Source: Escherichia phage a20
Reading direction: 5' to 3' (one strand)
Sequence record: OQ067374.1
Length of the DNA stretch: 64,000 bases
A program made the translations under genes and the position numbers. This document shows positions 37,980-45,054 of this stretch, in pieces (position 1 is the first letter of the stretch; every line of letters starts with the position of its first letter). The notes below the pieces were generated by a model. The model was not told where the DNA came from. It searched no databases and was given only the letters and a program-made list of their open reading frames with translations.

Positions 37980-38203
37980 TTAGGTTCACCTTCTTTAACG
38001 AAATCTGGGTAAGGGTAAAATCCTGAGTAAAACCCTTCACCTTTATGATTGCTACAACCTTTGTTTGAACAGTAACACCAATAATCAAAATCACAGGCCA
38101 TTTCGTCATTGCATAGAGCAAATACTACAGGCCATTCACACTTTTCGCATTTAGCGCCTTTAATAATTTTTGTTTGACTCATAACCATTTGACCTGCATG
38201 CAA
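37976..38203 (-). CDS. hypothetical Cys-rich protein
   Basis: 75 aa with about 10 Cys; start may be an internal Met (about 38182). Confidence 0.45.
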   Translation of the reverse strand: MHAGQMVMSQTKIIKGAKCEKCEWPVVFALCNDEMACDFDYWCYCSNKGCSNHKGEGFYSGFYPYPDFVKEGEPK

Positions 38204-38406
38204 TATTCTTCGACATGCTTTTTACGACCTTTCTTATCAATAAAGGTATATTCCATAAAGCGTCCATGATAACGACGTTCAACATCGTGAGGGGTGTTAA
38301 TAGGACACTTAGTCTGACGAATTTCTTCCCATTCACGAATAATAACTGCTTTATTCTTTGGGTCATACGGGTGAGGATAATGCACATTCATAACAATGGT
38401 TCCCAA
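38179..38406 (-). CDS. hypothetical protein
   Basis: 75 aa; preferred over the overlapping alternative frame 38160..38387 because it abuts neighbours without large overlap; likely starts at the internal Met. Confidence 0.4.
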   Translation of the reverse strand: MGTIVMNVHYPHPYDPKNKAVIIREWEEIRQTKCPINTPHDVERRYHGRFMEYTFIDKKGRKKHVEEYCMQVKWL

Positions 38407-38885
38407 TCAACAATCACAATTTCTAGTTTAGTGGAATATGTATCAAGAATTTCTTCAATGATATCCCAGTTTCCACCACCTATACCTGCTCCAATTCTTG
38501 GCATGTAAATCACAGGCTTTGCTATCTTATTCTTTCCGAATTTATTTAATTCTATTATACAATTCATTAAAGCAGAGTACTCAAAATTAGGTCCGGGCTC
38601 AAACTGTGTATAAAGATTAAAGCAATAAGCTTTATGGGTCTTAAAATATTTTTCATAAACCGAATAGGAACCGAGTTTAGACTCGTCTCCGAATTCGGTT
38701 TGAAGTTTATCGGCTTCTAAAATTTTTGGATAAGCCTTTGCTAATTGGCCTGCTACACCGGCGCCCATTGTATGAAAACAATTACACCCATGAGCAATAT
38801 TATTACCTTTAGAAAACAGGGCGACAATATCGCCCTTGATATAGTTTTTAATCACTTGCTGCAAGTCCTCTATTATAAGAGTCAA
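38388..38885 (-). CDS. macro-domain protein (ADP-ribose binding/processing)
   Basis: 165 aa; NNIAHGCNC...MGAGVAGQLAK and PRIGAGIGGG resemble macro-domain glycine-rich motifs; track start is a non-ATG codon. Confidence 0.55.
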   Translation of the reverse strand: MTLIIEDLQQVIKNYIKGDIVALFSKGNNIAHGCNCFHTMGAGVAGQLAKAYPKILEADKLQTEFGDESKLGSYSVYEKYFKTHKAYCFNLYTQFEPGPNFEYSALMNCIIELNKFGKNKIAKPVIYMPRIGAGIGGGNWDIIEEILDTYSTKLEIVIVDWEPLL

Positions 38886-39195
38886 CTAGACGGTCCACCA
38901 TAGAATTGCATGCTGCCTTATCTTTAGGTTCCGCCACCGAGCATTCTAATATTTGCCATTTTTTATAGTATCTTTTAATTAAGGTAGACGCCTTGAACCT
39001 ACTAGACGCCCCATCTTTTTCTCCGTCTTTATACGCATATAACAATTTTTGTGAAAAATCTACTTTACACTCTTGACTTTTACCACAATAATCAGACGCC
39101 GTTCTGTTTGTATACTCCGTTACATCAGTATATGTAGTATTAGCAAGAGCGTTAAATGAAACCAAGCCAACTATTAAAGCCAACATTTTGGTCAT
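38848..39195 (-). CDS. secreted protein (signal peptide); syntenic with T4 vs
   Basis: 115 aa; N-terminus MTKMLALIVGLVSFNALA; position between regB and tk matches T4 vs, but I cannot confirm sequence similarity. Confidence 0.45.
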   Translation of the reverse strand: MTKMLALIVGLVSFNALANTTYTDVTEYTNRTASDYCGKSQECKVDFSQKLLYAYKDGEKDGASSRFKASTLIKRYYKKWQILECSVAEPKDKAACNSMVDRLVDSYNRGLAASD

Positions 39196-43794: not shown

Positions 43795-44076
43795 CTATTT
43801 TTCTGAAGCGCCTGAAATATATTTTTCAAGACGTTGTTTCATTAGCGAGCCGTTCTTAGCGATTTCTTCCGGTTTATCGCACATACGCAACAATGCTTCA
43901 AGCTTAACGATATCGCTGGTGCGCTCAAATTTGCGAGTGTCTATCTTACTAGCAAGTTCAGAAATACGTGCTAATAGACTTTCAGCTTCAACCAAAGCTG
44001 CACCTAGCTTAGTTGCAAATGTGTCAGTAGCTTCATTAAGAATAGATTCTGATAAAAATTCACTATATGTTTTCAT
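43795..44076 (-). CDS. internal-protein-like head protein with capsid-targeting N-terminus
   Basis: Track ORF 43795..44091; start set at [10 protein letters not shown] (44076). Confidence 0.55.
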
Positions 44077-44561
44077 ATATACGCTTTCCAAGTTCCTGTT
44101 TTAAATGTTGAGATTACGCGTTTCGCGCGATTAGGTGTCTGACGATACCATTTAGATTGGGCGAGATTTACTGCCGCCTCGTCCCAACGTTTCTGTTGAA
44201 GCATACGAAGAGAATTAGTAAAACCAGCGACGCCTGCTACACCCATTTGGAAGACCATATTGACCAATGCACATCGACGAACCGCATCTAAAGAATCATA
44301 TACCGGTTTAAGTTTAGCATTACCCAAGATTCCGCGAACGGCTTTATCAACGTCTTCATTAAATAGCTTTTCAGCCTCATCAAGGGTAATTGTACCGTTG
44401 CATTTACGACCGATCATTCTGTCAAGTTCAGCTTTAGCTACGGCTAAAGACGGATTCTTTGTTACTAAATGGCCTATGCCAATCGTCCAAAAGCCTTCAG
44501 TGTCTTTGTATAAAGTCAGTCTAAGACCTTCGTCATTACGAAGCATTTCAAATATATTCAT
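44073..44561 (-). CDS. e: lysozyme (endolysin)
   Basis: Start set at [15 protein letters not shown] (T4 lysozyme N-terminus); catalytic Glu and Asp context conserved. Confidence 0.95.
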
Positions 44562-44562
44562 A

Positions 44563-44588
44563 ATACCTCCCACGTTTATAGGAGGTAT
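44563..44588 (-). promoter_or_regulatory. hairpin sequestering the lysozyme SD, with late-promoter-like loop
   Basis: Inverted repeat ATACCTCC (plus 44563-44570) / GGAGGTAT (44581-44588); the minus-strand loop reads TATAAACGTG, close to the T4 late promoter TATAAATA; same architecture as described for T4 gene e. Confidence 0.5.
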
Positions 44589-44595
44589 TTATTAC

Positions 44596-45054
44596 TTATA
44601 GGAGGGTAGTGAGCACCTTATATAATGATTTGCCCATTACATATTCCCATTGAGAAGGTTTAATTAAAGCGAATGCATCAAATTCAGGAATCTGACGTCC
44701 GTCTGGGAATGTATGATAGGAATTACAAACACTATTTCTGAATTGCTCGTGCTCTACAGGGATGGTATATAAGAACAGATGAATATTCTTATTGTCTGAG
44801 TAATGATGTTCACCTAGGTCTTTCAGGAAGGCAGGGTCATATTGTGTAAACCCAGTTTCTTCTTCGCATTCACGAATAGCGGCTTCAATAGGAGATTCGC
44901 CAGGTTCGACACGGCCTTTAGGAATATCCCACCGATGAGCTAAAGAACCTTTAGGACGAGAACCAGTTACACGCCCCATGAATAATTCTTTATCTTCGGT
45001 AAGGAAAATAATACCGGCTGATAGTTCTTTCACTTTATTTTTCTTACTCATCAT
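44596..45054 (-). CDS. nudE: Nudix hydrolase
   Basis: 152 aa; Nudix box GRVEPGESPIEAAIRECEEETG. Confidence 0.85.
   Translation of the reverse strand: MMSKKNKVKELSAGIIFLTEDKELFMGRVTGSRPKGSLAHRWDIPKGRVEPGESPIEAAIRECEEETGFTQYDPAFLKDLGEHHYSDNKNIHLFLYTIPVEHEQFRNSVCNSYHTFPDGRQIPEFDAFALIKPSQWEYVMGKSLYKVLTTLL

Follow-up and report, generated by a model that had tools for sequence, protein, structure and literature searches.

A stand-alone macrodomain encoded by tk.4 of a Mosigvirus phage and its probable action against DarTG2 defence

The open reading frame at 38388-38885 (minus strand; 165 codons when counted from the TTG at 38885) of Escherichia phage a20 (sequence record OQ067374.1) raises the question of what kind of protein it encodes and what the phage gains from it. 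An earlier note on this DNA had read the frame as a macro-domain protein in the tk-regB accessory region on account of its glycine-rich motifs, and had proposed that such a protein could reverse ADP-ribosylation-based host defence or process ADP-ribose-derived signals. The window, by which we mean the whole stretch of 64,000 nucleotides that was analysed, is collinear over its full length with Mosigvirus mar005P1 at 94-98.5% identity, and the 25 kb around the gene are ~96% identical to many Mosigvirus genomes; the window derives from an RB69-like, T4-like phage of the genus Mosigvirus. The local gene order, rI, rI.1, tk, tk.1, tk.2, tk.3, tk.4, vs, vs.1, regB, is that of T4, so the tk-regB setting had been recognised correctly, and the frame occupies the position of tk.4.

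The Pfam Macro profile (PF01661) matches the protein at 28.1 bits against a gathering cut-off of 22 (E 2.2e-6), and thus the profile search that the earlier note had proposed came out above threshold, with residues 32-146 aligned to profile positions 2-117 of 118. PHROG 335, which is labelled 'phosphatase', was matched at 4e-66. Solved macrodomains were retrieved by sequence alone: BT1257 as the best PDB match (2FG1/2AFC, 2e-11), yeast Poa1p (6LFQ and others, ~1e-8), SCO6735 (5E3B), human TARG1 and DarG, of which two macrodomains were matched by the window protein sequence at 1.8e-3 and 3.6e-3. With a profile of the 78-sequence family, the matches to PDB macrodomains improved to between 1e-17 and 3e-12. 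An AlphaFold2 model built with a 78-sequence alignment reached a pLDDT of 95.9 and a pTM of 0.91 (single-sequence input gave a pLDDT of 41). When the PDB was searched with this model using Foldseek, 140 matches were obtained at E<=0.001, headed by TARG1 (2.6e-10), Poa1p with ADP-ribose (1.1e-9), Thermus (Taq) DarG with ADPr (6.7e-8) and BT1257 (1.3e-7), with Mtb DarG, SCO6735 and then viral macrodomains (Mac1) further down; the best 50 of the 140 are macrodomains or designed proteins that are also weakly similar in sequence. The predicted fold is the three-layer alpha/beta/alpha macro fold, and the structure prediction, for which a non-macro fold had been named beforehand as counter-evidence, therefore agrees with the profile and with the PDB sequence matches in bearing out the assignment as a macro-domain protein.

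Both glycine-rich motifs to which the earlier note had pointed are present, and they align with ADP-ribose-binding loops. The first, MGAGVAG (residues 30-36 in the numbering of the 155-residue protein; 38748-38768, minus strand), aligns as the macrodomain phosphate-binding loop, with G33 and A35 invariant in 117 family members, and matches its counterpart in DarG, TARG1 and PhiKZ gp104. The second, PRIGAGIGGGNW (residues 119-130; 38466-38501, minus strand), aligns as the substrate/diphosphate-binding loop; P119, I121, G122 and G124 do not vary within the family, and G122 and G124 align with G126 and G128 of SCO6735 (PMC9411070). In the ADP-ribose-bound structures, the two loops aligned with these motifs clamp the diphosphate of ADP-ribose, and the tk.4 product is predicted to bind ADP-ribose by the same pair of glycine-rich loops.

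The window protein is 85% identical to T4 Tk.4 over 155 amino acids and 96% identical to RB69 Tk.4. Because of this high full-length identity and the same gene order, the gene is the ortholog of T4 tk.4, whose product carries the RefSeq label 'phosphatase; contains A1pp phosphatase motif'. Differences from T4 tk.4 are distributed over codon positions 1, 2 and 3 as 19/9/64, which identifies a conserved coding gene and not a chance frame; 49 of the differing codons are synonymous and 24 non-synonymous, a pattern that indicates purifying selection. The tk.4 frame is thus a real gene encoding a single-domain macrodomain. Its family is widespread, with homologs detected by tblastn in 2839 of 50,697 phage records (~5.6%) from many hosts.

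The frame itself therefore stands as it had been read, but its 5' boundary is to be moved. The true start is likely the GTG at 38855, giving 155 amino acids, rather than the TTG at 38885, giving 165, because T4 Tk.4 and the annotated Mosigvirus orthologs, likewise of 155 amino acids, begin at that residue; the TTG was rejected on these grounds of homology. The coding sequence of tk.4 (adfM), as defined by the open reading frame and the ortholog alignment and characterised by Pfam Macro and AlphaFold2/Foldseek, accordingly extends over 38388-38855 on the minus strand, from the GTG at 38855-38853 to a TGA at 38390-38388, and comprises a single macro domain with no additional domain. A GAGGA sequence is located 10 nt upstream of the GTG. 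The ten in-frame codons that precede it from the TTG (38856-38885, minus strand) fall within the 3' end of vs, are missing in T4 Tk.4 and the annotated orthologs, and are probably not translated.

The neighbours, placed by the list of open reading frames and the annotated gene order, are tightly packed. The upstream gene vs, coding for the valyl-tRNA synthetase modifier (38848-39195, minus strand), overlaps the tk.4 start by 8 nt (38848-38855), and at its other end the stop codon of tk.4 and the ATG of the downstream gene tk.3 (38179-38391, minus strand) run into each other in the sequence ATGA (38388-38391). These two overlaps suggest translational coupling along vs-tk.4-tk.3 within one transcription unit. 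A scan of 36.5-41.5 kb gave 14 promoter-like sites where 16.5 were expected, and 7 terminator-like sites where 3.8 (sd 2.1) were expected, both at or near background. A terminator-like hairpin, AGGGCGATATTGTCGCCCT, with 8 pairs and followed by GTTTTCTAAA, is found at 38818-38836 (minus strand) inside codons 7-13 of tk.4; it may have arisen by chance, or it may be an RNA element where vs and tk.4 meet. It is also observed that two conditionally essential genes adjoin here, as no other T4 gene was depleted as strongly as vs in minimal medium in the transposon study described below (10.1101/2025.11.20.689424).

The function of the T4 ortholog has been reported in the HIDEN-SEQ preprint (bioRxiv 10.1101/2025.11.20.689424, 20 Nov 2025), in which a T4 transposon library was grown on a host expressing DarTG2. 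Under this defence, tk.4 alone emerged as a significant hit; its clean knockout rendered T4 sensitive to DarTG2, and the gene was dispensable on plain K-12 (10.1101/2025.11.20.689424). The authors renamed it adfM, for anti-DarT factor macrodomain, noted the structural likeness to the macrodomain of Mtb DarG, and stated that removal of ADP-ribose from DNA by Tk.4 'seems likely' (10.1101/2025.11.20.689424). Previously, DarTG2 resistance had been found to persist in T2 and T4 phages devoid of the NADAR factor AdfN, implying a second factor (PMC11825919). Our literature search returned no functional work on Tk.4 beyond the HIDEN-SEQ preprint and no enzymatic assay of T4 Tk.4 or a close relative. 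The anti-DarTG2 role of Tk.4/AdfM is therefore already known via the T4 ortholog, and by transfer from T4 we infer the same role in the Mosigvirus phage. The suggestion that the protein reverses an ADP-ribosylation-based defence thus finds support in what is reported for T4 under DarTG2 (10.1101/2025.11.20.689424), and it confirms that a small anti-defence enzyme can be recognised from motifs alone, without tools.

The active site was examined by aligning the 117 family members with reference macrodomains, and the result was checked by hhalign, HMMER and MAFFT alignments. Two positions stand out. Asn25 (codon 38781-38783, minus strand) is Asn in 116 of the 117 members and is equivalent to N22 of DarG, N27 of SCO6735 and N23 of PhiKZ gp104; the column contains Asn also in BT1257, and Ser in TARG1. 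Mutants of the equivalent Asn are less active in DarG (N22A, PMC5179494), SCO6735 (N27S, PMC9411070) and PhiKZ AdfM (N23A, PMC13309987). Gln84 (codon 38604-38606, minus strand), which is Gln in 117 of 117 members, occupies the column of the catalytic Lys (K80 in Taq DarG, K84 in TARG1). This column holds Lys in TaqDarG, MtbDarG, TARG1 and PhiKZ gp104, and Gln in BT1257 and in SCO6735, where the equivalent residue is Gln85. As judged from these alignments, the replacement of the catalytic Lys of DarG, TARG1 and PhiKZ AdfM by an invariant Gln is a property of the Tk.4 family, and it is the new element of the present analysis. The mechanism of DarG should not be transferred to Tk.4 as a matter of course, because Gln84 stands in place of Lys80, which is essential in DarG: K80A inactivates that enzyme (PMC5179494). 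Precedent for a Gln-type site is provided by SCO6735, which outpaces both DarG and TARG1 in stripping thymidine-linked ADP-ribose from DNA and protects E. coli against DarT; its Q85A/E and N27S mutants have no thymidine-ADPr-DNA hydrolase activity (PMC9411070). As SCO6735 shows, a Gln-type active site is competent for hydrolysis of thymidine-linked ADP-ribose (PMC9411070). The window protein has a loop of 8 residues between Gln84 and a conserved Tyr, as do 86 of the 94 relatives that could be scored; this loop comprises 13 residues in SCO6735, 14 in BT1257 and 15 in the macro homolog of Vibrio phage Bennett, an Adpp-like gene discussed below.

Taken together, we consider it probable that the Mosigvirus Tk.4/AdfM is a stand-alone macrodomain that counters DarTG2 by de-ADP-ribosylating phage DNA. 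The macro fold, the orthology to T4 Tk.4, the conserved Asn/Gln pair and the glycine-rich loops form the basis that the analysis itself provides. In the proposed sequence of events, the 155-residue macrodomain would be expressed from the tightly packed vs-tk.4-tk.3 string; upon infection of a DarTG2 host, DarT2 would attach ADP-ribose to thymidines of single-stranded phage DNA, within the TNTC motif, and thereby block replication; the two glycine-rich loops of the phage protein would bind the ADP-ribose moiety; and Gln84, held by Asn25, would position the distal ribose such that the ribose-thymine bond is hydrolysed and the DNA restored. The phage macrodomain would thereby act as an 'orphan antitoxin' that dispenses with the DarT-binding domain of DarG. 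There is a precedent in a phage macrodomain of an unrelated lineage: in vitro, PhiKZ gp104 frees a DNA oligonucleotide of the ADP-ribose attached by DarT2 (PMC13309987). Elsewhere in the window, a 152-residue open reading frame at 44596-45054 (minus strand) displays a visible Nudix box, GRVEPGESPIEAAIRECEEETGF, adjoins the lysozyme gene e (44073-44573) and corresponds to an annotated 'nudix hydrolase' of phage LF82-1; this frame could conceivably be linked to the ADP-ribose that the macrodomain would release.

Several observations weigh against this mechanism or invite other ones. A hydrolase in the style of DarG would be at odds with the lack of Lys80 and with the score of 30.4 bits against the DarG equivalog (NCBIfam NF048014), for which the cut-off is 250 bits and of which only profile positions 4-146 of 338 are matched; DarG proper was therefore rejected as an identification, the absence of Lys80, the absence of a second domain in a protein of 155 residues and the neighbours vs and tk.3 rather than darT leading to the same result. 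The Lys34, Lys89 and long mobile loop of SCO6735, which are tied to DNA binding (PMC9411070), are likewise missing. Protection might be afforded with no catalysis at all, in that Tk.4 binds DarT2 directly, or masks or sequesters ADP-ribosylated DNA or ADP-ribose-derived molecules. Although devoid of catalytic activity, the Q85A mutant of SCO6735 remains an inhibitor of DarT in vitro, and a stronger one than the DarG or TARG1 mutants (PMC9411070); Tk.4 lacks the catalytic Lys of DarG and TARG1, and the literature search found no published enzymology of Tk.4. Against such a role, the Asn25/Gln84 pair and the glycine-rich loops have been kept across the 117 homologs down to ~35-40% identity, as is typical of an active site; the isolated DarG macrodomain with K80A does not inhibit DarT (PMC5179494), and in wild-type SCO6735 the same Asn/Gln pair goes together with high hydrolase activity (PMC9411070). 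Protection by binding alone is thus regarded as most unlikely, and hydrolysis, rather than binding, would by analogy be the mode of action of Tk.4. It is also very unlikely, in our estimate, that Tk.4 acts chiefly on a substrate other than DarT2-modified DNA, such as proteins or RNA ADP-ribosylated by the phage enzymes Alt, ModA and ModB or by other defence transferases, with the DarTG2 phenotype reflecting one of several activities. The closest folds, TARG1 and SCO6735, de-ADP-ribosylate proteins as well, and the family is spread across many hosts; but the literature search disclosed no link of Tk.4 to substrates of the Alt/ModA/ModB type, and both the uniqueness of the hit under DarTG2 and the dispensability on plain K-12 (10.1101/2025.11.20.689424) speak against this reading.

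The remaining alternative is contained in the historical 'A1pp phosphatase' label, and it bears directly on the DNA-repair reading, since homologs of 35% identity are ADPR-1''-phosphate phosphatases. Tk.4 would then be an enzyme of the Poa1p/Adpp type that converts the ADPR-1''-phosphate produced by RES-type NAD+ phosphorylases (aRES defence) to ADP-ribose. According to a January 2026 preprint, 15% of NARP1 operons carry a Poa1p-like macro gene, Adpp, and the Adpp of Vibrio phage Gary, when purified, turns ADPR-1''-phosphate into ADP-ribose, from which NARP1 rebuilds NAD+ and defeats aRES (10.64898/2026.01.28.702374). Not only the labels of T4 Tk.4 and PHROG 335 but also the prominence of Poa1p (6LFQ) among the best sequence and fold matches fit such an activity, as does a Poa1p-like motif, HxCNC...G.G.A.QL, which includes the residue aligned with Poa1p H23. 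The Gary enzyme, a homolog of Tk.4, acts as a phosphatase on ADPR-1P in vitro, and aRES is not overcome without it (10.64898/2026.01.28.702374); the homolog in Vibrio phage Bennett (35-36% identity) is located between Adps and Namat. The latter locus (NC_055829.1, 105370-108376; macro homolog at L004:5001-5477 within L004:4129-7135) was observed to have a NARP1-AP arrangement, the flanking genes being annotated as 'ribose-phosphate pyrophosphokinase' (Adps-like) and 'nicotinamide phosphoribosyl transferase' (Namat-like). When an Adpp is taken to be a macro-domain gene no more than two genes away from an Adps and Namat pair, the Bennett gene belongs to this class and the window gene falls outside it.

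An Adpp is useful only together with NARP1 (Adps and Namat), and the neighbours of tk.4 are vs and tk.3, not NARP1 genes. With the Bennett proteins as queries, tblastn detected neither Adps nor Namat in the 64-kb window, nor in the complete genome of Mosigvirus mar005P1, which is 96-98% identical to the window and carries the macro gene. A phage-wide search for Namat offers weak evidence in the same direction: the 30 of 2041 matches that were listed include Felixounavirus- and rV5-like Escherichia phages but no T4-like genome of 168-170 kb. In addition, the phenotype of the T4 ortholog is specific to DarTG2 and not to aRES, and the loop after Gln84 has 8 residues as opposed to 15 in the Bennett homolog. 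Because Adpp requires Adps and Namat, which were found in neither the window nor mar005P1, a main role as Adpp, or in a NARP1-AP system, was judged unlikely for the window gene, although a side activity of Tk.4 on ADPR-1''-phosphate is possible. The processing of ADP-ribose-derived signals, the other function that had been suggested for this gene, thus holds for the distant Adpp homologs (10.64898/2026.01.28.702374) but probably not for tk.4 itself. At least two functional types, AdfM acting against DarTG2 and Adpp acting against aRES, thus appear to be united in PHROG 335.

A more speculative extension of the preferred reading, de-ADP-ribosylation of phage DNA, is that the Tk.4 type constitutes a mechanistically distinct subclass, with Gln in place of Lys, a short loop and none of the SCO6735-type lysines, that is perhaps bifunctional, acting on thymidine-ADPr DNA and on ADPR-1''-phosphate, or else acting on ADP-ribosylated RNA. 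Bifunctionality is raised by the fact that relatives of 35% identity are Adpp enzymes; on balance, we regard this extension as rather doubtful. If it were true, at least two NAD+-based defences would be countered by a single small phage protein that is very widespread (~5.6% of phage records).

Comparison with known systems places Tk.4 closest to its T4 counterpart, with which it shares the length of 155 residues, the flanking genes tk.3 and vs, and every conserved residue. The T4 gene, from a Tequatrovirus, begins with ATG and overlaps vs by 4 nt, whereas the gene of the present Mosigvirus phage begins with GTG and overlaps vs by 8 nt. Adpp and Poa1p have the CNC...G.G motif and the Gln in common with Tk.4. 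The Gln-type, ALC1-like macrodomains SCO6735 (5E3B) and BT1257 (2FG1) agree with it in the Gln column, the partner Asn and the glycines of the IG(A/C)G loop; however, they are only 23-31% identical to Tk.4, in which Lys34, Lys89 and Val25 of SCO6735 are replaced by Ala32, Gly88 and Gly23. The mobile loop of SCO6735, ~5 residues longer than in DarG or TARG1 and bearing Lys89 and Lys93, has no equivalent in Tk.4. The DarG macrodomain of DarTG2 (5M31/5M3E/5M3I) belongs to the same fold class (Foldseek E 7e-8 to 2e-7, TM ~0.75); its Asn N22 and both glycine-rich loops are conserved in Tk.4, and the substrate is presumed to be the same. In contrast, DarG possesses the catalytic Lys80 and a C-terminal DarT-binding domain, whereas Tk.4 has Gln84, no second domain and no adjacent darT.

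PhiKZ gp104, also named 'AdfM' (Cell Rep 2026, PMC13309987), is likewise a phage-encoded, stand-alone anti-DarTG2 macrodomain, and its N23 aligns with Asn25 of Tk.4. Its activity is proven in vitro, whereas that of Tk.4 is predicted. The two proteins are only 19% identical (hhalign probability 96%), and gp104 is closely DarG-like, matching Mtb DarG at 9e-25 and containing an FPTK(x)xWR motif with the Lys, which Tk.4 lacks. By these alignments, PhiKZ gp104 and Tk.4 are assigned to different macrodomain lineages, the former Lys-type and DarG-like, the latter Gln-type and BT1257/Poa1p-like, and the use of one name, AdfM, for both could mislead the transfer of annotations.
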